64,000 nucleotides of DNA from Chloroflexota bacterium (GCA_026710945.1 JAPOQA010000031.1:50611-114610); one strand, 5' to 3'; positions 20,165 through 28,566 are shown, counted from the first letter of the stretch. Notes: generated by a model not told the origin, from the letters alone. Numbers and translations are program-made.

Positions 20165-20569
20165 TCACGTCGGCACGACTCTGCGAACATCCTCGATCTT
20201 GTCGAAGTCGCTCTCCCAGCTATATATCTCCGTAATCCCACGGGCTTTCATGTGCACAACTGTGTAGGCGTCGGCGAAAGAGATGCGGTGCTGTACAAAC
20301 ACATCGAGCGCTTCCAGGCATAGTCGCTTCTCGGCAAACCGGATTCCAGGCAGGGAGATGATGGCGCCTACCATCGACCCTATCCTCTCTCTGGAAACAC
20401 CGTACGTGCGCTGGAGAGTGAACACGGTTTCGAATACGACCAACGGCGAGGTGACAACCTTTTCCTCCCCCCGCTGAATTATCGCCAGCAGCCGACGCGC
20501 GGATTCTGCCATTTCCAAGTTATCACCCGTGAAGTAGCGTAGAAGGATGTTGGTATCAAGAAAGCGCAT
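20165..20569 (-). CDS. vapC: PIN-domain ribonuclease toxin VapC
   Basis: ORF 20165..20638; start at MRFLDTNILL (first PIN Asp); 14-nt overlap with the upstream antitoxin gene. Confidence 0.8.
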   Translation of the reverse strand: MRFLDTNILLRYFTGDNLEMAESARRLLAIIQRGEEKVVTSPLVVFETVFTLQRTYGVSRERIGSMVGAIISLPGIRFAEKRLCLEALDVFVQHRISFADAYTVVHMKARGITEIYSWESDFDKIEDVRRVVPT

Positions 20570-20837
20570 CGTCTTCACTTTGCCGGTCAGACTCTGCTTC
20601 TTTCGCCACCCCTTCTTCGAACGCAGCGCGTTCTTCACGCCAAGTTAGAGCCTTTTGCGAACTTGCTGCTGCGCCAAAGTAACGATCCACTGGGGACAGG
20701 ACCGGCAGCAGGCGAACTCCGTCTGGTGTCGATTCAAACCGCACGAAGTCCCGCGGCTTGATGCCTAGCTCCTTTCGTATCTCAGCCGGTACCGTTACCT
20801 GGCCCTTCTGCGTTACCCTCGTTTGGTAAACTCGCAC
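20556..20837 (-). CDS. vapB: AbrB/MazE/SpoVT-type antitoxin VapB
   Basis: 93 aa; VTQKGQVTVPAEIRKELGIKPRD swapped-hairpin motif; GTG start preceded by AAGGAG. Confidence 0.75.
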   Translation of the reverse strand: MRVYQTRVTQKGQVTVPAEIRKELGIKPRDFVRFESTPDGVRLLPVLSPVDRYFGAAASSQKALTWREERAAFEEGVAKEAESDRQSEDDALS

Positions 20838-21116
20838 TGTAATACTCCTTAACTTCTTCTCCCTATTTCCTTAAGTAATACTATTCTATAGGTAATACAT
20901 CTGCCAAGGGCACACCAACCTAGAATCTTTCCCGTTACCTGCATTCCCCCACTACCGCACACATGCCTGCCAGGCCTAACACACCCCTTCTCCCTTGACG
21001 GTAAGCGTGATGCTGCAGCCTGCCGAATCTCTCTGCATTCGCTACAATAGATGGTACTACTCGAAATCTACTGCCATTCGGCGAGACCCCTACTGTTTGT
21101 GAGGCAAAGAATTACC

Positions 21117-23774
21117 GTGCGCACTGACGAAATTCGCCAACGCTTTCTCGACTATTTTGCAGAAAAAGAGCATCTTGTCATGCCGGGATCATCGCTCATT
21201 CCACAGAGCGATCCCAGCGTCTTGCTCACCAGTGCCGGCATGCAGCAATTCAAGGACTATTACCTCGGCCTCGCCGATCCGCCGCGGCCGCGCATTGCCA
21301 CCGTCCAGAAGTGCCTGCGCACCGATGATATCGACGAGGTCGGCGACCAGTCGCACCTCACCTTCTTCGAGATGCTGGGGAACTTCGCTTTTGGCGACTA
21401 CTTCAAAGAAGAGGCAATCGCCTTTGCCTGGGAACTCGTGACCGAGCGCTTTCCCTTTGCCAAGGAGCAGGTGTGGGCAACCGTATTCGGCGGTGAAGAT
21501 GACCTCGGCCCCGATGAAGCTGCCGAGCGGGCGTGGCTTGCGGTTGGCGTGCCGCCGGAGCGCATAGTCCGTTACTCAGGCTGGAAAGAGAACTGGTGGG
21601 GCCCTACCGGTGATTCCGGCCCCTGCGGACCGTGTTCGGAGATCCATCTTGAGCTCGCGCCGAATACCGATGGTCACGACTGCCTGGGTCCGGCCTGCCC
21701 CTGCGGCCGCTTTCTTGAAATCTGGAACCTCGTGTTCAATCAGTATTTCTCACGTGCGAGCAACAGCAATCTCAGCGCCGACGCCCTGACACCACTTGAC
21801 AGCGTTGGCGTGGACACAGGGGCCGGTCTGGAACGCTGGGCCGTGGCGCTTCAGGGCGTTGCCACCCCGTACGATACGGACCTCTTCCAGCCGATCGTGC
21901 AGCAGGCGGCGCAGTTGCTCGGCTGCACCTACGGCGACCACACGGAGCAGGACGTCGGCCTCCGCATCATATGCGAGCACGCGCGCGCTGCCGTCTTTCT
22001 GATTGGAGACGGCATCCTGCCGGGCAACGTGGGGCGTAGCTACGTGCTCCGCCGCCTGATCCGGCGCGCCATGCGCCACGCGTACCTGCTGGGCCGTCGG
22101 GAGCCCATGCTGGCCGCACTGTGCCGGACTGTCATCGCGCATATGGGTACAGCGTACCCTGACATACGTGCGCGCGAAGACTTCATTTTGCGCATGATCA
22201 CGCAGGAGGAAGAGCGCTTCTTGCGCAACGTGAACCAGGGTCTGCCAATTCTCTCTGGAATGCTGGAAGACGCGGAGCAAGCAGGCGGCACAATTCTCGG
22301 AGGTGCAGATGCGTTCCTGCTCCATGACTCGTACGGCTTTCCCATTGAGCTCACCCGAGAAGTCGCCGCCAGTCGCGGGATTACGGTGGATGAAGAAGCC
22401 TACCAAGCCGCGCTGCGCGAGCAACAGGAACGCAGCCGCCAGAGCGCGCAATTCGAAATCGTGCAGAACCTGCCAACCGACTTTGCTGGCGTAGACTTCA
22501 CTGGGTACGAAGCAACCACTGATACCGGCACCGTCGTCGGCATACAGCAAGGCGACGAGCGCGCCGGCAGGCTGGAAGCCGGAGAAGAGGGCGTCATTGT
22601 GCTTGACCGCACACCTTTCTATGCGGAAGGCGGCGGCCAGGTGGGTGACACCGGGCGTATTGAGAACACTGACGGTGTCTTCCGCGTGGAAAACACGTAC
22701 TCGCCGCAACCCGGTCTCATCGCTCACCAGGGCCGTGTGACGGAAGGGTCGATCGTGGCTGATCGTTCGGTCACGGCGACCGTCGACCCCGAGAGACGCG
22801 CCAACACGGCGCGCAACCATACGGCGACCCATCTCATGCACGCCGGCCTGCGCAGCGTGCTCGGAGACCACGTCCAGCAATCCGGGTCGCTGGTCGCGCC
22901 GGACCATCTGCGCTTCGACTTTTCCCACCCTGAGGCCCTTTCGCACCAGGAGATTGAGGAAGTCGAGAGACGCGTTAACACCCTCGTACAGTCAAACTTG
23001 CAAACAGAGATCGCACATCTGGAAACGTCGGAGGCGGTGGCCGCCGGTGCGCTGGCGCTCTTTGGCGAGAAATATGGCGAGACCGTGCGCGTTATCACTA
23101 TCGGTGACGTGAGCAAAGAGCTCTGCGGCGGCACCCATGTCCCCGCCACCGGTTCCATTGGACTCTTCGTAATCCAGAGTGAGTCTAGTATTGGCGCGGG
23201 CCTGCGCCGCATTGAGGCGCTTACGGGCCCCGCCGCCGTGCGCCACGTTCAAGAGCAGAATGCTCTACTGCTCGACCTCTCCCACTCCCTCGAAGCACCG
23301 CCGCAAGAGCTCGGCGAGCGCACTGCCGCCTTGCGTGAGGAACTCGCCCAGCAACGGCGAGAGATTGCACGTTTGGAACGCGGGCAGGCAGGCCAACAGG
23401 TGGAGCACCTCATCGCCGCTGCAGAGGTCGTAGATGACATGAAGCTGGTCGTAGGCCGCGTGGACGTTGCCAATGTCGAGAACTTCCGCGAGCTCGGCGA
23501 CAGGGTCAAGGATCGACTCGAGGGCTCCGGGGCATTGCTGCTCGGATCCGTCCTCAACGACCGCCCCCAGTTTCTCATTATGACAACCAAAGGGCTATCC
23601 CAGCGAGGCATCCATGCCGGTAACCTCGTGCGCGCGGTGGGCAAAGTGGCAGGCGGCGGCGGCGGCGGCGGACCCGAAACGGCCCAGGCCGGCGGCCGCG
23701 ACCCTGGAAAACTGGACGAGGCCCTGGCGAGCGGTGCACAGCTCCTCCGGGACGCCATGACCGGCGCTACGTAG
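21117..23774 (+). CDS. alaS: alanine--tRNA ligase
   Basis: ORF 21051..23774; probable GTG start at 21117 (RTDEIRQRFLDYF N-terminus); HxxxH editing motif; C-terminal DHHA1 region with a GGGGGG stretch. Confidence 0.9.
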   Translation: MRTDEIRQRFLDYFAEKEHLVMPGSSLIPQSDPSVLLTSAGMQQFKDYYLGLADPPRPRIATVQKCLRTDDIDEVGDQSHLTFFEMLGNFAFGDYFKEEAIAFAWELVTERFPFAKEQVWATVFGGEDDLGPDEAAERAWLAVGVPPERIVRYSGWKENWWGPTGDSGPCGPCSEIHLELAPNTDGHDCLGPACPCGRFLEIWNLVFNQYFSRASNSNLSADALTPLDSVGVDTGAGLERWAVALQGVATPYDTDLFQPIVQQAAQLLGCTYGDHTEQDVGLRIICEHARAAVFLIGDGILPGNVGRSYVLRRLIRRAMRHAYLLGRREPMLAALCRTVIAHMGTAYPDIRAREDFILRMITQEEERFLRNVNQGLPILSGMLEDAEQAGGTILGGADAFLLHDSYGFPIELTREVAASRGITVDEEAYQAALREQQERSRQSAQFEIVQNLPTDFAGVDFTGYEATTDTGTVVGIQQGDERAGRLEAGEEGVIVLDRTPFYAEGGGQVGDTGRIENTDGVFRVENTYSPQPGLIAHQGRVTEGSIVADRSVTATVDPERRANTARNHTATHLMHAGLRSVLGDHVQQSGSLVAPDHLRFDFSHPEALSHQEIEEVERRVNTLVQSNLQTEIAHLETSEAVAAGALALFGEKYGETVRVITIGDVSKELCGGTHVPATGSIGLFVIQSESSIGAGLRRIEALTGPAAVRHVQEQNALLLDLSHSLEAPPQELGERTAALREELAQQRREIARLERGQAGQQVEHLIAAAEVVDDMKLVVGRVDVANVENFRELGDRVKDRLEGSGALLLGSVLNDRPQFLIMTTKGLSQRGIHAGNLVRAVGKVAGGGGGGGPETAQAGGRDPGKLDEALASGAQLLRDAMTGAT

Positions 23775-23853
23775 CACGGGCTCCATGACGGCGGCAACAC
23801 TCCTTGGCTTTCCCTGCATCAATGGCGGTGCATGTCCATCTTTGTAAAGAACT

Positions 23854-25923
23854 ATGGACTATATCACAAGAAGAGCGCTTGAGTTACTTCGCCTAGGCAC
23901 TGGCATTCCCGCAGCGACTTTTCGCGAGGAGCAGGAAGAAGCCATCCGCCACATTGTCGAAGGCAGAGGCAGGTTGCTTGTTGTCCAGAAAACCGGATGG
24001 GGCAAGAGCAACGTATATTTCATAGCGACCAAGCTGCTCCGTGAGGCCGGGTTTGGCCCAGCCTTGCTCATTTCGCCATTGCTTTCGCTCATGCGCAACC
24101 AGATTGAGGCTGCGGAACGAATGGGTGTGCGGGCGGTAACAATCAATGCAAGCAACAAGGCCGAGTGGGCCAGTGCAGAAGATCAGCTAGAAAACGACGA
24201 CGTGGACATCCTCCTCATTTCCCCCGAGCGGCTTGCCAACGACGACTTTCGCGAACGGATTCTTCCCGACATTGCAGCGCGCTTGGCATTGCTAGTCATA
24301 GATGAGGCCCATTGCATCTCTGACTGGGGACACGATTTCCGTCCCGACTACCGTCGCATCGAAAGAATTGCAAGGACATTGCCAGGGAACATCCGGCTGC
24401 TCGCTACTACCGCTACCGCAAACAACCGTGTAATGGATGACCTAAAGGCGGTGCTCGGCCCCAGTCTGCATGTCTTGCGGGGAGAGCTCAATCGGCCATC
24501 TCTCTTGCTACAAACTATCTCGCTCCCTAGCCGAGAGGAACGGTTAGCCTGGCTTGCCGAACAACTCGCATCCATTCCTGGGTCAGGCATCATCTATGCC
24601 TTGACGATTCGCGACGCTGAGCAGGTAACCTGTTGGCTTCGATCAGAAGGACTGGACGCCCAGTGCTACACAAGCAGATCAAGAAACCGGCAAGAGTTAG
24701 AGCAAGCTCTCTTGAAAAACCGGGTAAAGGCACTAGTCGCCACAACTGCGCTTGGCATGGGCTTCGACAAGCCTGATTTGGCATTTGTCATCCATTACCA
24801 GACTCCAGGCTCGGTTGTGCACTACTATCAGCAAGTCGGACGAGCAGGCCGGGGGTTGGACGCAGCTTACGGCGTGCTGCTCAGCGGCACCGAGGATAAG
24901 GAGATTATCGACTACTTCATAAGAAACGCTTTTCCTACAAAGGATGAGGTCGGCCACGTGCTTGCGGCCTTGGAAAACGAACCGGCTGGCCTCTCCATTC
25001 CGCAGCTTTGTGGGTCGATCAATGTTAGAGAAAACCGCATCAAGCAAACCGTTAAGCTCCTCTCCCTTGAGTCACCGGCGCCTATCGCGCAGCAGGGGTT
25101 CAAGTGGCAGTTGACTGCGGCGCAACTAAGTGACGCATTCTGGGAGCGCGTGGAACGACTCACTGCTTTGCGACGAGAAGAACAGCGCCAGATGCAAGAG
25201 TACGTGACCCTAAAGTCGGGCCATATGAACTTCCTAATTCAAGCACTGGACGGTAAACCGGAAGCAATAGAACCGCCTGACATACCAGCGCTACCCATGA
25301 AGCCACAACAGGAGAAGGTGCGGAGAGTAGTTGAATTCCTGCGTCGTACCTGTCTGCCAATCGAACCACGTAAAAGATGGCCGGATGGTGGCCTACCAAA
25401 GTACGACTTGAGGGGATTCATCCGAAATGAACATCAGGCAGAAACGGGACGGGCGCTTTGCCAATGGGGAGATGCCGGCTGGGGCCGGCTCGTTCGCATT
25501 GGAAAGTACAAACATGAGCGATTTTCAGACGATCTAGTTTCAGACTCTTTCCAACTATTCCTTGAGTGGGACCCACAGCCGACCCCAACTTGGGTAACCT
25601 GCATTCCATCGCGGCGTCAACCCACGCTGGTGAGAGACTTTGCCTCGAGGCTGGCAACTGAATTGGGACTGCCATTTCGGGATGCTCTCGTAAAGGTAGA
25701 CAACCGACCACAGCAAAAGGGCATGGCCAACAGCATTCAACAGGCGCGTAACGTGGATGGCTCACTCGACGTAGTGTCAGATCTCATAATTCCGGGACCC
25801 GCTCTGCTTGTGGATGACATGGTAGACTCGCGGTGGACACTTACGATTGCAACGTGGCTACTACGTACTCATGGTTGCGGGAAAGTATTTCCCTTTGCGC
25901 TTGCTAACACTGCAACGGACTGA
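23854..25923 (+). CDS. RecQ-family SF2 DNA helicase fused to a C-terminal ComFC-like phosphoribosyltransferase-fold domain
   Basis: 689 aa; RecQ motifs TGWGKS, VIDEAHCISDWGHDFRPDY, ATTATA and YYQQVGRAGRG; no RecQ zinc-finger cysteines; the C-terminal ~200 aa have the PRTase signature LLVDDMVDSRWTL, as in ComFC/ComF. Confidence 0.75.
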   Translation: MDYITRRALELLRLGTGIPAATFREEQEEAIRHIVEGRGRLLVVQKTGWGKSNVYFIATKLLREAGFGPALLISPLLSLMRNQIEAAERMGVRAVTINASNKAEWASAEDQLENDDVDILLISPERLANDDFRERILPDIAARLALLVIDEAHCISDWGHDFRPDYRRIERIARTLPGNIRLLATTATANNRVMDDLKAVLGPSLHVLRGELNRPSLLLQTISLPSREERLAWLAEQLASIPGSGIIYALTIRDAEQVTCWLRSEGLDAQCYTSRSRNRQELEQALLKNRVKALVATTALGMGFDKPDLAFVIHYQTPGSVVHYYQQVGRAGRGLDAAYGVLLSGTEDKEIIDYFIRNAFPTKDEVGHVLAALENEPAGLSIPQLCGSINVRENRIKQTVKLLSLESPAPIAQQGFKWQLTAAQLSDAFWERVERLTALRREEQRQMQEYVTLKSGHMNFLIQALDGKPEAIEPPDIPALPMKPQQEKVRRVVEFLRRTCLPIEPRKRWPDGGLPKYDLRGFIRNEHQAETGRALCQWGDAGWGRLVRIGKYKHERFSDDLVSDSFQLFLEWDPQPTPTWVTCIPSRRQPTLVRDFASRLATELGLPFRDALVKVDNRPQQKGMANSIQQARNVDGSLDVVSDLIIPGPALLVDDMVDSRWTLTIATWLLRTHGCGKVFPFALANTATD

Positions 25924-25926
25924 TCT

Positions 25927-27204
25927 ATGATAGATGCAGAGTTATCAGCCAACGCAAAAGCTATACTCTTGTTGACCGCTCCATTGCTTATCGGAAAGAG
26001 CAAGAATTCAGCACGCCCTTTGACCCCATCAGAGTACGACCAACTGGCGCATTGGCTCAGGCAGCACGGCCGCGAGCCGGCCGATTTGCTCGAGCGTCAG
26101 ACAGGGGATGAGTGGGACAAGTCTGAACTCCGACTTGACTACGAACGAATAGGTCAACTAATCCAACGGGGCTTCTTGCTCAGCCAAGCGCTGGAGCACT
26201 GGCAAGCCCGGGCAATTTGGGTGGTTAGCCGAGCGGACCCAGGATATCCAAATCGATTCAAGCGACGGCTCGGCAAGTATGCGCCACCCGTACTGTACGG
26301 CTGCGGAGATGCCGAATTGCTAGACAGCGGTGGTCTGGCCGTGGTGGGATCCCGTGAGGTCCCAAAAGCACTACTAGAATACTCCGAGGGAATTGGTCGG
26401 CTTGCTGCGGCTGCCCGGTGCACCGTTGTCTCCGGTGAGGCGCGGGGAGTTGATCAAGCAGCAATTCAAGGGGCATTGGGGGAAGGCGGAAGAGCCGTTG
26501 GCGTTCTGGCTGGAGGCTTGGAAAACGCTGCGCTGGCCCGCAAGAATCGTGAAGGATTGCTGGATAAGCGGCTTGTCCTAGTTTCCCCGTATGATCCAAG
26601 GGCGCGCTTCAATGTCGGAAACGCCATGCAACGCAATAAGCTAGTGTACGCCTTTGCCGACGCGGGATTGATAGTGGAATCCGATTACAACAAAGGCGGC
26701 ACTTGGACTGGAGCCGTCGAACAACTGAATCGTCTGCGCTTCGTACCAGTTTTTGCTCGCTCCGACGGACAAGCCAGTCAGGGCATCGAGGCTTTGCTAC
26801 GAAAGGGAGTTCACCCATGGCCAAATCCCCAAACGCCCTCAGACTTTCGGCAGGTTCTGGACGGCAGCTTCTTGCCTTCGCAGACTGAGTCTCCAAGACA
26901 AGCGGCGTTGCTGCCAGAAGAAGAGGATGGTATCCCACACAGTGCTGCGGAAGAAGCACAGGAAGTCACGATTCGAGAAGCACAGGCCAAAGACGCCTAC
27001 GTTGCAGCAGAGACCCCTCCCGATCAGCTCTTTACCAAGGTTGAGCAACTACTGACCTCGATCACCACTCCCACGTCAGAATCTGATGTAGCAACATATC
27101 TTCACGTAAACAAGACCCAAGCAAGAGAATGGCTAAAGCGATTAGTCCGTGATGGGAAATACAAGCGGCAGAAGAGGCCAGTTCGCTACGAAAGGATTCT
27201 CTAG
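25927..27204 (+). CDS. DprA/Smf-like (SLOG-fold) DNA-processing protein homolog with a C-terminal winged helix
   Basis: 425 aa; starts 4 nt after the helicase stop; Rossmann core [44 protein letters not shown]...[10 protein letters not shown] matches the DprA consensus (GSR...VSGLAxGID...VLGxGLD) but is divergent; basic C-terminal wHTH. Confidence 0.7.
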
Positions 27205-27345
27205 GAACAACCTTGGTTAAGTCACATTGCCCAATCAATTGAGCCCCGAACCAGCAACACCCACTTTCTTGTCAAAACCTCCCCATTTCAGGCATCGTAG
27301 AGAATGAGTTGAATGAAGAGTACTTGACTTGCAAGGAGTTTCAGC

Positions 27346-28566
27346 ATGTCATTGTCCGCAGAAGAACAAGCGTTATTGAATGGCGAGAAGCGCAACCTGC
27401 CGTTCCTACCGGCGCTGGGCGGCTGGTACAACGAAGAAGAGGTGGAAGCCCTGACCCAAGCGCTCCGCGAGAGCATGGACTGGAGAGTCGGCTTTACCGG
27501 CAACGACATTACGGAGTTTGAACGGGAATTTGCCGAGTATTGCGACGTAAAGTACGCCTATGCTGTGAATTCTTGTGGCACCGGTCTCGATGGGGCGATG
27601 CAGGCACTGAACCTCGGCCCGGAAGATGAAGTGATCGTACCGGCCATTACATACATAGCGACCGCCCAGGCGGCAGTCGGCGTAGGCGCGAAAATCGTGT
27701 TGGCCGAGTGCCACCCGGATACTTTCAACATCGACCCCAACGACGTGGAACGCCGCATGACGGCAAACACCCGCGCCATCATGCCCGTCCACAATAACGG
27801 TCTCTCCGCCGACATGGACGCCCTGGCAGATATTGCCGAACGACATCCCCACCCCACGCACGGCCCGCCCCCCGTGGTCGGCGATGCCGCTCGTGCCGCC
27901 GGCGGCGGCTACAAGGGCACCCGCGTCGGCAAGAAGGGCGCCATGAATATCTTCAGCTTCCAGACCACCAAGAACATGACAACCCTTGGCGAGGGCGGCA
28001 TGGTGACGACGGATGATGACGATTACGCGGCCTACATCAATAGCAGCCGCTCGTTTGGCTGGGGATTGAAGGGCTGGGGTACAAACTACCGCCTCACCAA
28101 GTTGCAGGCCGTCGCCGGTAGAATCCAGCTTGCGCGGCTCGACGAAATGAACGACCTGCGCCGCGACCGTGCGTTGTTACTCTCCGAGTGTCTGGCCGAT
28201 GCGCCCGGTGTCATTATTCCCCAAACCCCAGCAGGTTACGATCACGTGTGGTACGGCTATACGGTCATGCTGGAATCTGAGTGGGCCGGTGAGCCGCGCG
28301 ATAAGGCTTTAGAGCACATGCAGTCCGAATACGGCGTTGGCGGTGGCATTATGAATGCCGCGCTCCCCGATTACGACTCCATTTTGAATAAGATGGGCCA
28401 CAAGCCGGAGGACGTGCCCGTATCGACCGATCTTGGTCGGCGTCTCTTCTGCCCCTCGCTCCATCCGTTGATGAGCGACGACGACGTAGCGTACGTCGCG
28501 GCCTCAATCAAGGCGAGCATGGAGACAGTGGCGGGGACTGTTGGCGCCGCTGCGGTTGCGCGGTAA
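27346..28566 (+). CDS. DegT/DnrJ/EryC1/StrS family PLP-dependent sugar aminotransferase
   Basis: 406 aa; motif FSFQTTKNMTTLGEGGMV (PLP-lysine region). Confidence 0.8.
   Translation: MSLSAEEQALLNGEKRNLPFLPALGGWYNEEEVEALTQALRESMDWRVGFTGNDITEFEREFAEYCDVKYAYAVNSCGTGLDGAMQALNLGPEDEVIVPAITYIATAQAAVGVGAKIVLAECHPDTFNIDPNDVERRMTANTRAIMPVHNNGLSADMDALADIAERHPHPTHGPPPVVGDAARAAGGGYKGTRVGKKGAMNIFSFQTTKNMTTLGEGGMVTTDDDDYAAYINSSRSFGWGLKGWGTNYRLTKLQAVAGRIQLARLDEMNDLRRDRALLLSECLADAPGVIIPQTPAGYDHVWYGYTVMLESEWAGEPRDKALEHMQSEYGVGGGIMNAALPDYDSILNKMGHKPEDVPVSTDLGRRLFCPSLHPLMSDDDVAYVAASIKASMETVAGTVGAAAVAR

Follow-up and report, generated by a model that had tools for sequence, protein, structure and literature searches.

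A probable PsyrTA (RqlHI) toxin-antitoxin and anti-phage gene pair of known architecture on a Chloroflexi MAG chromosome

The gene pair and its parts

The window, that is, the whole 64,000-nucleotide stretch of Chloroflexi MAG DNA analysed here, contains two adjacent genes with the following parts.

23854..25923, + strand: psyrT (rqlH-type) gene, encoding a 689-aa RecQ-like SF2 helicase with a PRTase-like, predicted toxin domain (ATG start; PADLOC PsyrT)
23854..24888, + strand: helicase core, residues 1-345 (Pfam DEAD and Helicase_C; TIGR00614; PDB 4q47)
24889..25188, + strand: RqlH-specific linker, residues ~346-445 (full-length AlphaFold model)
25189..25293, + strand: vestigial zinc-binding module, residues ~446-480, all four cysteines lost (no Cys; alignment)
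25294..25920, + strand: C-terminal ComF/PurF/ShosT-like type-I PRTase domain, residues 481-689, predicted toxic effector (profile, AF2, Foldseek)
25927..27204, + strand: psyrA (rqlI-type) gene, encoding a 425-aa DprA-like, predicted antitoxin (ATG start; PADLOC PsyrA)
26200..26808, + strand: DprA/SLOG Rossmann-fold domain, PsyrA residues 92-294 (Pfam and PDB matches)
27022..27201, + strand: putative C-terminal basic helix-turn-helix (HTH) or winged-helix region, PsyrA residues ~366-425 (sub-threshold Pfam)

Both open reading frames (689 and 425 aa, on the same strand) and all the motifs quoted in an earlier note on this DNA are present as described. The intergenic gap is 3 nt: the psyrT stop codon (TGA, 25921-25923) is followed by TCT and then by the ATG of psyrA. 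The promoter and terminator scan yielded nothing above shuffled expectation, an Rfam scan of the whole window gave no matches, and the tRNA scan detected none.

The N-terminal part of PsyrT belongs to a RecQ-family helicase, as had been proposed. Residues 6-337 match the D. radiodurans RecQ (PDB 4q47, E 3.3e-53), and the protein matches Pfam DEAD (84.3 bits) and Helicase_C (51.2 bits) and scores above cutoff with the NCBIfam subfamily model recQ_fam (TIGR00614, 228.8 bits, cutoff 219.8). The SF2 ATPase motifs are intact and align with those of the E. coli homologue: motif I (GWGK51S), motif II (D150EAH, within D150EAHCISDWGHDFRPDY, residues 150-166), motif III (TATA 186-189, within ATTATA 184-189) and motif VI (QQVGRAGR 326-333, within YYQQVGRAGRG 324-334), K51 and D150 being the counterparts of K49 and D148 of RqlH. 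The protein is, however, not a canonical RecQ: it reaches 261.3 with TIGR01389 (cutoff 640.2) and 188.6 with PRK11057 (cutoff 1015), and HMMs detect neither a zinc module nor an RQC winged helix nor HRDC, the last two searched with Pfam. Cysteine is absent from residues 445-500, and with it all four cysteines of the C-x16-C-x2-C-x2-C module, in agreement with the earlier claim that the RecQ zinc finger is missing. No second recQ or dprA copy was detected in the window by tblastn.

The linker has no match in Pfam or NCBIfam and corresponds to the 90-aa spacer reported for RqlH of M. smegmatis. In the AlphaFold model, its residues 363-420 (pLDDT 81-91) are predicted to form a winged-helix-like, helix-helix-helix-strand-strand unit (helices 363-375, 382-388 and 393-404; strands 411-414 and 417-420) followed by a long helix.

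The C-terminal domain of PsyrT has, judging from profile and modelled structure, a type-I PRTase fold. The earlier identification of this domain as a PRTase fails with Pfam PF00156 (16.4 bits, gathering score 26.3) and holds at the levels of profile and fold. The family profile of the domain matches PRPP synthetase in the PDB (E 1.3e-6) on the PRPP-binding loop, and the best Foldseek matches of the AlphaFold (AF2) model (pLDDT 81.9) are all type-I PRTases, with PurF (1.9e-4), H. pylori ComF (7p0h, E 2.3e-4, TMq 0.51 over 170 columns) and ShosT (8zvd, 3.4e-4, TMq 0.53) on a par. To call the domain characteristic of ComFC was thus an overstatement: there is no ComF model among its NCBIfam matches at E up to 10, and membership in ComF is rejected, the fold resemblance being shared by PurF and ShosT. 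The PRTase signature LLVDDMVDSRWTL spans residues 651-663. In the PRPP loop (LLVD654D655MVDSRWT), which has the non-canonical form DD-x-V-D-S-x-W-T, LLVD654D655MVD aligns with LLVDDIVD of the E. coli homologue, placing D655 opposite the first Asp of the DIVD motif.

PsyrA carries the motifs GSREVP (141-146) and VLAGGLEN (193-200), with a 13-residue motif between them at 167-179, and is clearly DprA-like, as claimed. It matches Pfam DNA_processg_A (PF02481) at 122 bits (gathering score 29.6), SLOG cluster4 at 30.2 bits, and the PDB structures of DprA (3uqz, E 2e-7) and ShosA (9vzo, E 1.2e-6). With the dprA equivalog TIGR00732 it scores 87.8 bits, under the cutoff of 191.15 for canonical DprA. 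The winged helix that had been assigned to its C-terminus is matched below threshold, by FaeA-like (18.1 bits at 376-415, gathering score 20.7), TBPIP WH and HTH_23 models; the region aligns with the C-terminus of the E. coli homologue and corresponds to the HTH described for RqlI, which is dispensable for antitoxin activity (PMC4670107).

Relationship to PsyrTA and other systems

PsyrT matches the PADLOC PsyrT profile PDLC03928 over residues 5-688 (profile positions 5-686 of 689; E 1.2e-267, 887.8 bits), and PsyrA matches the PsyrA profile PDLC03927 over residues 6-422 (E 1.3e-131, 437.5 bits), so that both full-length components by which PADLOC and DefenseFinder define PsyrTA are present. 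The genes are adjacent and co-directional, with the toxin/helicase gene first and the DprA-like gene second, the arrangement of RqlHI. We therefore consider the gene pair at 23854-27204 to be a clear copy of PsyrTA (RqlHI), a two-gene toxin-antitoxin and anti-phage module (probability about 0.8). PsyrTA and RqlHI are one system under two names, and the combination of a RecQ-like helicase carrying a toxic PRTase domain with a DprA-like antitoxin is already published; the C-terminal domain has been called ComF-like since 2012 (PMC3378886). The earlier note, which took the architecture to be unnamed, had thus found something real but not new.

The window pair shares with P. syringae psyrTA and E. 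coli F11 rqlHI the gene order and tight coupling, the lengths (689 versus 690 aa for the toxin, 425 versus ~400-460 aa for the antitoxin), the domain order (RecQ-like helicase, linker and PRTase; N-terminal domain, DprA and HTH) and the functional residues K51, D150 and D655. PsyrT is 63% identical to an ICE-borne E. coli homologue and 48% identical to one of the gntU-yhgN type, the respective values for PsyrA being 48% and 35%; PsyrT also has a 100%-identical counterpart among NCBI proteins, from a Chloroflexi MAG. The window copy differs in its Chloroflexi MAG host, in the loss of the tetracysteine zinc module, a subclade trait, and in its position between alaS and degT, as opposed to an ICE or the gntU-yhgN hotspot in E. 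coli.

Several lines of published work bear on the homologues. In 2012, M. smegmatis RqlH (MSMEG_5935) was reported to be a RecQ-like 3'-5' helicase whose C-terminal domain is ComF/PRTase-like (PMC3378886, Ordonez et al.). It shares with the window protein the ATPase-core motifs, the family-specific linker, the C-terminal module and the absence of HRDC but has a tetracysteine zinc-binding domain (residues 435-499) and, unlike the window locus, no RqlI partner; where both genes occur, rqlH is always upstream of rqlI. In E. coli, genetic analysis of rqlHI in 2015 mapped the toxicity of F11 RqlH to the PRPP-binding loop of the PRTase domain, with D663 required, and not to the helicase, and demonstrated that RqlI neutralises and binds RqlH, the two proteins co-precipitating (PMC4670107). 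D663 is probably the first Asp of the DIVD motif, and the toxicity-linked acidic residues of the loop (cf. D663) are present in the window PsyrT. In 2022, PsyrTA homologues were reported to confer phage protection on E. coli or B. subtilis, and a psyrA deletion could not be transformed (10.1101/2022.05.11.491447).

An analogue is ShosTA, which likewise combines a PRTase-domain toxin with a DprA-like antitoxin, acts via PRPP binding and ssDNA/RecA binding (PMC11961720, PMC12961424) and, like PsyrTA, causes DNA damage and filamentation. The PsyrT C-terminal domain and PsyrA match the structures of ShosT and ShosA, respectively. In ShosT, however, the PRTase is fused to a pyrophosphatase-fold N-terminal domain, in PsyrT to a helicase, and ShosT and ShosA lack strong mutual binding (type IV), in contrast to RqlH and RqlI. 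Identity with ShosTA is rejected: no ShosT model is among the best 25 PADLOC matches of PsyrT, and PsyrA scores 87.2 bits with the ShosA model, far below its PsyrA score.

The next best PADLOC matches of PsyrT, after PsyrT itself, are to DpdF (up to 292.9 bits; 149.7 bits with NCBIfam DpdF), the helicase of the Dpd 7-deazaguanine DNA-modification and restriction cluster. That the gene encodes DpdF is extremely unlikely and is rejected on score hierarchy and gene context: these scores fall far below that of PsyrT and do not reach the DpdF equivalog cutoff of 550, the matches cover only the shared RecQ-like core, and no other dpd genes lie nearby.

The reading favoured by the earlier note was a competence-type module for uptake and processing of ssDNA, with a RecQ motor taking the place of ComFA, joined to ComFC in one protein and coupled to a DprA paralogue. 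The parts do resemble the ComFA-ComFC-DprA set, both combining an SF2 helicase with a PRTase of ComF-type fold and a DprA-fold protein; the structural match to H. pylori ComF, the ComF-like label of Ordonez et al. and the genuine DprA domain of the partner all point that way. Nevertheless, ComFA is a DEAD-box and not a RecQ-type helicase, the C-terminal domain of PsyrT lacks the N-terminal zinc finger of ComFC and has a DSxWT in place of a TTGxT PRPP loop, no ComF HMM matches it, PurF and ShosT equal ComF in the fold comparison, PsyrA stays under the dprA equivalog cutoff, the flanks contain no com genes, and the system occurs in 1636 E. coli genomes and in many taxa not known as competent. 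The published genetics speaks of a neutralised toxin, PRPP-loop toxicity and phage defence, phenotypes unlike those of competence proteins, not of transformation. A role in competence is thus very unlikely, and it is the alternative mentioned in the same note, a conflict or defence system, that agrees with the published view of PsyrTA.

The chief value of the assignment to PsyrTA is the correct annotation of the two genes. In NCBI they are labelled 'RecQ family helicase' and 'DprA', which is suggestive of repair and competence; as components of a PsyrTA toxin-antitoxin and defence module, they should not be used to argue that Chloroflexi have RecQ repair or natural transformation.

Genomic neighbourhood and inheritance

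In ~73 of the 77 assessable loci, the gene immediately after the PsyrT homologue, on the same strand, encodes a PsyrA homologue; the neighbour conservation that the earlier note had proposed to check is thus borne out. These loci span Nitrospirae, Proteobacteria, Acidobacteria, Verrucomicrobia, Cyanobacteria, Chloroflexi, Actinobacteria and others, and the same order is found in E. coli. Of the outcomes that the note had named as counting against it (a C-terminal domain failing PRTase models, a partner outside the DprA family, a pair not conserved as neighbours), none was fully obtained: the domain fails in Pfam but passes by profile and fold, the partner does resemble DprA, and the two genes stay neighbours in related loci. 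The homologues retain 60-69% identity across unrelated phyla, which indicates horizontal spread of the pair, and a match in 1636 of 5426 E. coli genomes indicates that it is an accessory gene set there. In the window, the GC3 of the pair (0.57 and 0.535; range 0.54-0.57) is atypical compared with that of the flanking alaS and degT (0.72 and 0.73), indicating a horizontal origin. Compared with an 86%-identical orthologue, the two genes have dN/dS of 0.16 and 0.19, that is, they evolve under purifying selection. The position is syntenic in this relative, so that the pair is inherited stably and shows no visible mobility; it is located beside alaS in two lineages. Only short, chance-level matches were detected in a search for direct or inverted repeats flanking the pair as marks of insertion, and when metagenome contigs were searched with the DegT protein for an empty site, the only matches were fragments belonging to the same population and remote DegT loci that lack alaS. 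What is established for the window locus is its membership in the family, the integrity of its motifs, its operon structure, the conservation of the two genes as a pair, and the purifying selection acting on them.

The flanks consist of alaS, degT, transporters and one VapBC-like pair, and none of the ten neighbours of the pair has a PADLOC match, so that the co-occurrence with defence islands for which the earlier note had proposed a test is not seen here. This location outside any defence island, the conserved site by alaS and the purifying selection would suit a housekeeping role in which a helicase of DNA repair or recombination, a RecQ substitute, acts on host DNA with a DprA-like accessory, toxicity being a by-product of imbalance. 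Such a role is also in keeping with M. smegmatis RqlH, a genuine 3'-5' helicase in a species without RecQ (PMC3378886), with the proposal of Russell & Mulvey that RqlH and RqlI jointly serve some beneficial, undefined function on DNA, and with the promotion of RecA-dependent repair by ShosA. It is improbable all the same, in view of the strongly atypical GC3, the horizontal spread across phyla, the accessory status in E. coli, the phage defence by homologues, the failure to delete psyrA, and the mapping of toxicity to the PRTase domain rather than the helicase.

The pair could, alternatively, be a purely selfish addiction module that stabilises itself by post-segregational killing and has no part in phage defence. 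The system was first discovered as a toxin-antitoxin pair through shotgun-cloning bias (Sberro 2013); the neighbouring VapBC-like pair implies that the region tolerates toxin-antitoxin modules; and one E. coli PsyrTA, overexpressed in K-12 MG1655, gave no detectable protection against the phages tested. Pure addiction seems unlikely nonetheless, as homologues do defend E. coli or B. subtilis against phages, the related ShosTA has identified phage triggers, and the large conserved helicase domain would be hard to explain.

Proposed mechanism and the lost zinc module

For homologues of the window pair, helicase activity, genotoxicity dependent on the PRTase loop, neutralisation and physical binding by the partner, and phage defence have all been demonstrated. 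By analogy, toxicity of PsyrT, its neutralisation and binding by PsyrA, and phage resistance are predicted for the pair as a PsyrTA module. PsyrT would be a RecQ-like 3'-5' DNA helicase with the PRTase-like domain as its toxic effector, and PsyrA, produced from the same operon, would bind PsyrT and silence the effector, leaving the complex inert in uninfected cells. We infer along the following lines what triggers the module, which chemistry the PRTase domain performs and how the pair acts in the Chloroflexi host. A phage-linked cue would strip away or titrate PsyrA; this cue might be ssDNA or replication intermediates, which the helicase and its DprA-like partner would sense, competition for RecA, or host shut-off combined with antitoxin turnover. 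The freed PRPP-binding PRTase domain might then disturb nucleotide or DNA metabolism, and the resulting DNA damage, SOS induction, filamentation and growth arrest would abort the infection.

A mild novelty of the window PsyrT is its membership in a subclade without the four zinc-binding cysteines of the prototype RqlH. Ordonez et al. 2012 characterized the RqlH clade by a zinc-binding domain with four cysteines that follows the linker and precedes the C-terminal domain; the window protein has retained the helix that precedes this module (FLIQALDG) and lacks the module itself. Where the gntU-yhgN-type homologue from E. coli carries KEC...CGKCSSC, it has a vestigial stretch, of which residues 447-477 have pLDDT <50 in the full-length AlphaFold model. 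The Cys4 motif is present in 0 of 139 homologues with at least 65% identity versus 69 of 74 with <55% identity. The zinc-less subclade includes the window protein, the ICE-borne E. coli copy and homologues from many phyla. Counting against the PsyrTA reading are this lost module, whose removal rendered M. smegmatis RqlH insoluble (PMC3378886), the non-canonical PRPP loop, the location outside a defence island, the syntenic position and the lack of protection by one E. coli PsyrTA.

It is conceivable, if rather doubtful, that the zinc-less PsyrT is functionally distinct, with altered engagement of DNA or PsyrA by the helicase, or, more broadly, that PsyrTA is an immune machine built from the ssDNA-handling toolkit of competence. 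The helicase might then track phage ssDNA and bring the ComF-like PRTase to act on DNA or nucleotides, and transformation proteins would, if so, be linked to immunity. Both ideas concern the PsyrTA family as a whole and not the window locus in particular.

PDB searches yielded no solved structure of PsyrT or PsyrA, the matches being to RecQ cores, DprA and ShosA only. A compact, zinc-free and well-conserved PsyrT variant could therefore suit structural work, a modest point that applies at the level of the family.

Identity of the gene pair

The pair consists of two adjacent open reading frames (ORFs):

psyrT, 23854..25923, plus strand, 689 aa ORF (protein 1)
psyrA, 25927..27204, plus strand, 425 aa ORF (protein 2)

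The psyrT stop codon TGA is followed by TCT and then by the psyrA start ATG. The earlier note placed both ORFs exactly, and every motif it quoted is located in the proteins. Protein 1 contains GWGK51S, D150EAHCISDWGHDFRPDY, ATTATA (184-189), YYQQVGRAGRG (324-334) and the C-terminal motif LLVDDMVDSRWTL (residues 651-663), and protein 2 contains GSREVP, a 13-letter stretch and VLAGGLEN. Identical proteins are already present in NCBI, from a Chloroflexi MAG, as ‘RecQ family ATP-dependent DNA helicase’ and ‘DNA-processing protein DprA’, respectively. The NCBI PsyrA (P0121, 424 aa) starts with MDAELS and the window ORF with MIDAELS (425 aa, ATG 25927), a one-codon difference (25927-25932).

The Pfam and NCBIfam domain matches confirm the pairing of a RecQ-family helicase gene with a DprA-like gene. 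Protein 1 matches DEAD (84.3 bits) and Helicase_C (51.2 bits) in Pfam and, in NCBIfam, passes the recQ_fam subfamily cutoff (228.8 vs 219.8) while falling far under the RecQ equivalog cutoff. Protein 2 matches DNA_processg_A (122 bits) and SLOG cluster4 (30.2 bits) and is under the dprA equivalog cutoff (87.8 vs 191.15). The PADLOC models for PsyrT (E 1.2e-267, 887.8 bits, residues 5-688 of 689) and PsyrA (E 1.3e-131, 437.5 bits, residues 6-422) match full-length. The locus is PsyrTA, the same, already known system as RqlHI, and PADLOC or DefenseFinder would call it automatically. The runner-up PADLOC models have one domain in common with each protein, namely, DpdF, the helicase of the Dpd DNA-modification system, for protein 1 (292.9 bits) and ShosA, the DprA-like antitoxin of ShosTA, for protein 2 (87.2 bits); given the DpdF score against that of PsyrT, there is next to no chance that protein 1 is DpdF.

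Homologues and the proposed mechanism

The M. smegmatis RqlH is a 691-aa RecQ-like 3'-5' helicase with a C-domain described as ComF-like (Ordonez et al. 2012, PMC3378886), and psyrTA was reported as a toxin-antitoxin pair by Sberro et al. 2013. In E. coli F11, cells with the 690-aa RqlH but no RqlI induce the SOS response and filament, and this toxicity requires the PRPP-loop Asp (D663A; DIVD to EVME); RqlI, a DprA-like protein of ~400 aa with a C-terminal HTH, binds RqlH, its N-terminus is needed for antitoxin activity and the HTH is dispensable, and rqlH is always upstream of rqlI (Russell & Mulvey 2015, PMC4670107). Phage defence was demonstrated by Millman et al. 2022, where a psyrA deletion was not obtainable. 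In the analogous ShosTA, triggered by T7 Gp0.7 via host shut-off, ShosT is a PRPP-binding protein that upsets purine metabolism, and ShosA binds ssDNA and RecA. K51, D150 and D654/D655 of the window PsyrT align with experimentally studied residues.

The best-supported reading is that of a helicase-PRTase toxin held by a DprA-like antitoxin: PsyrA would bind PsyrT directly and keep it in check, phage infection would free PsyrT, and the freed toxin would damage DNA or nucleotide metabolism and thereby stop growth. Helicase activity, genotoxicity that depends on the PRPP loop, a partner that binds and neutralises the toxin, and defence have been shown only for homologues and would extend to this pair by analogy; the trigger and the PRTase chemistry of PsyrTA we infer, in part from ShosTA.

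Domain anatomy and the lost zinc module

The two proteins comprise the following regions:

PsyrT residues 1-345, helicase core, matching RecQ structures along residues 6-337 (best E 3.3e-53)
PsyrT residues ~346-445, linker (AlphaFold)
PsyrT residues ~446-480 (25189-25293, plus strand), position of the RecQ/RqlH zinc module, four cysteines absent
PsyrT residues 481-689, PRTase-like C-domain (profile and fold)
PsyrA, N-terminal domain upstream of the DprA/SLOG domain
PsyrA residues 92-294, DprA/SLOG Rossmann domain
PsyrA C-terminus, low-complexity linker, then basic HTH

No solved structure of PsyrT or PsyrA is among the PDB matches. The linker has no Pfam or NCBIfam HMM match; in the full-length AlphaFold model (pLDDT 73.7), residues 363-420 are confidently helix-helix-helix-strand-strand and look like a winged helix. 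The pLDDT is <50 over helicase motifs V-VI (298-352; 24746-24909), although these are nearly invariant in the alignment, probably reflecting its shallow, closely related sequences rather than real disorder.

The missing zinc finger, already noticed from the sequence, coincides with a low-confidence region of the model (~446-480). The motif C-x(10-25)-C-x2-C-x2-C is found in 0/139 homologues at least 65% identical to the window PsyrT, in contrast to 69 of the 74 that are <55% identical. Judging from this split, the loss is a clade feature marking a zinc-less PsyrT subclade that includes the ICE-borne E. coli copy. We know of no earlier description of this subclade, the only mildly new point of the locus.

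In the C-domain, Pfam PRTase is sub-threshold (16.4 bits), and a 44-sequence profile retrieves the PRPP-binding loops of PRPP synthetases (E 1.3e-6). The PRPP loop is family-specific, DD-[MILV]-[VI]-D-S-[RGK]-W-T vs the usual DD-x-x-T-T-G-x-T. The C-domain model (pLDDT 81.9) has roughly equal fold matches to PurF (E 1.9e-4), H. pylori ComF (7p0h, E 2.3e-4, TMq 0.51) and ShosT (8zvd, E 3.4e-4, TMq 0.53), and no ComF HMM matches. The competence-like ssDNA module put forward in the earlier note has these shared folds as its sole basis; with HMM, context and phenotype support all absent, it is very improbable. The note's interpretation is thus supported in part: its domain calls and its alternative of a conflict or defence system fit PsyrTA.

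Two short PADLOC ‘DpdF’ models, PDLC02866 (255 positions, 68.7 bits) and PDLC02869 (74 positions, 73.6 bits), match only this C-domain (residues 496-687; 25339-25914) and may represent PsyrT-like proteins that are split or present as fragments, not DpdF. Many 200-330-aa cluster representatives that look like gene fragments also match the C-domain alone.

Conservation, selection and genomic context

The window PsyrT and PsyrA are 63% and 48% identical to the ICE-borne E. coli pair and 48% and 35% to the pair at the gntU-yhgN site; 1636/5426 complete E. coli genomes have a match. Among one-genome-per-species contigs, PsyrT relatives at 47-69% identity occur in 80 loci from Nitrospirae, Proteobacteria, Bipolaricaulota, Acidobacteria, Verrucomicrobia, Cyanobacteria, Chloroflexi, Actinobacteria and others. 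As the neighbourhood check proposed earlier bears out, the pair is kept together: a PsyrA homologue lies downstream on the same strand in ~73 of the 77 loci with sufficient downstream sequence, mostly within a few tens of bases (100-400 nt in a handful), and was not found at the other four (L031, L048, L072, L074). In Mycobacterium colombiense (L028, 111-3487), a zinc-less PsyrT (61% identity) directly precedes a PsyrA homologue (48%), an actinobacterial genome with both partners, whereas in the 2015 survey Gram-positive bacteria nearly always had RqlH without RqlI (PMC4670107).

An 86%-identical relative (L003) has the same order, alaS-psyrT-psyrA-degT, and dN/dS against it is 0.16 (psyrT) and 0.19 (psyrA), a sign that purifying selection acts on both. 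The dS values are 0.48 and 0.37, those of the flanking alaS (1.15) and degT (0.92) being about twofold higher (21051-28566); exchange or acquisition of the pair since the two lineages diverged could account for this, as could its different codon composition. GC3 is 0.57 in psyrT and 0.535 in psyrA vs 0.72 in alaS and 0.73 in degT, and this atypical composition and the 60-69% identity between phyla together suggest that the pair was acquired horizontally.

The neighbours are a peptidase, an MFS transporter, a VapBC-like pair, alaS, degT and ABC transporters; none of ten neighbouring genes has a PADLOC match, and the window holds no second DprA-like or RecQ-like gene. The copy here sits on the chromosome in a syntenic position and not in a defence island, which, together with the absent zinc module and one E. 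coli PsyrTA for which protection was not detectable, weighs against the defence reading. A housekeeping repair helicase with a partner seems unlikely, and a pure addiction module equally so.

Just upstream of alaS lies the VapBC-like pair (20165-20837), kept in L003 and without a PADLOC match:

20165-20638, minus strand, PIN-domain protein, overlapping the antitoxin gene
20556-20837, minus strand, MazE/AbrB-type antitoxin gene

The mechanical alaS ORF is 907 aa vs 885 aa called in relatives (21051-21116); translation probably begins at the GTG codon at 21117 (VRTDEIRQ...), identical in L003.
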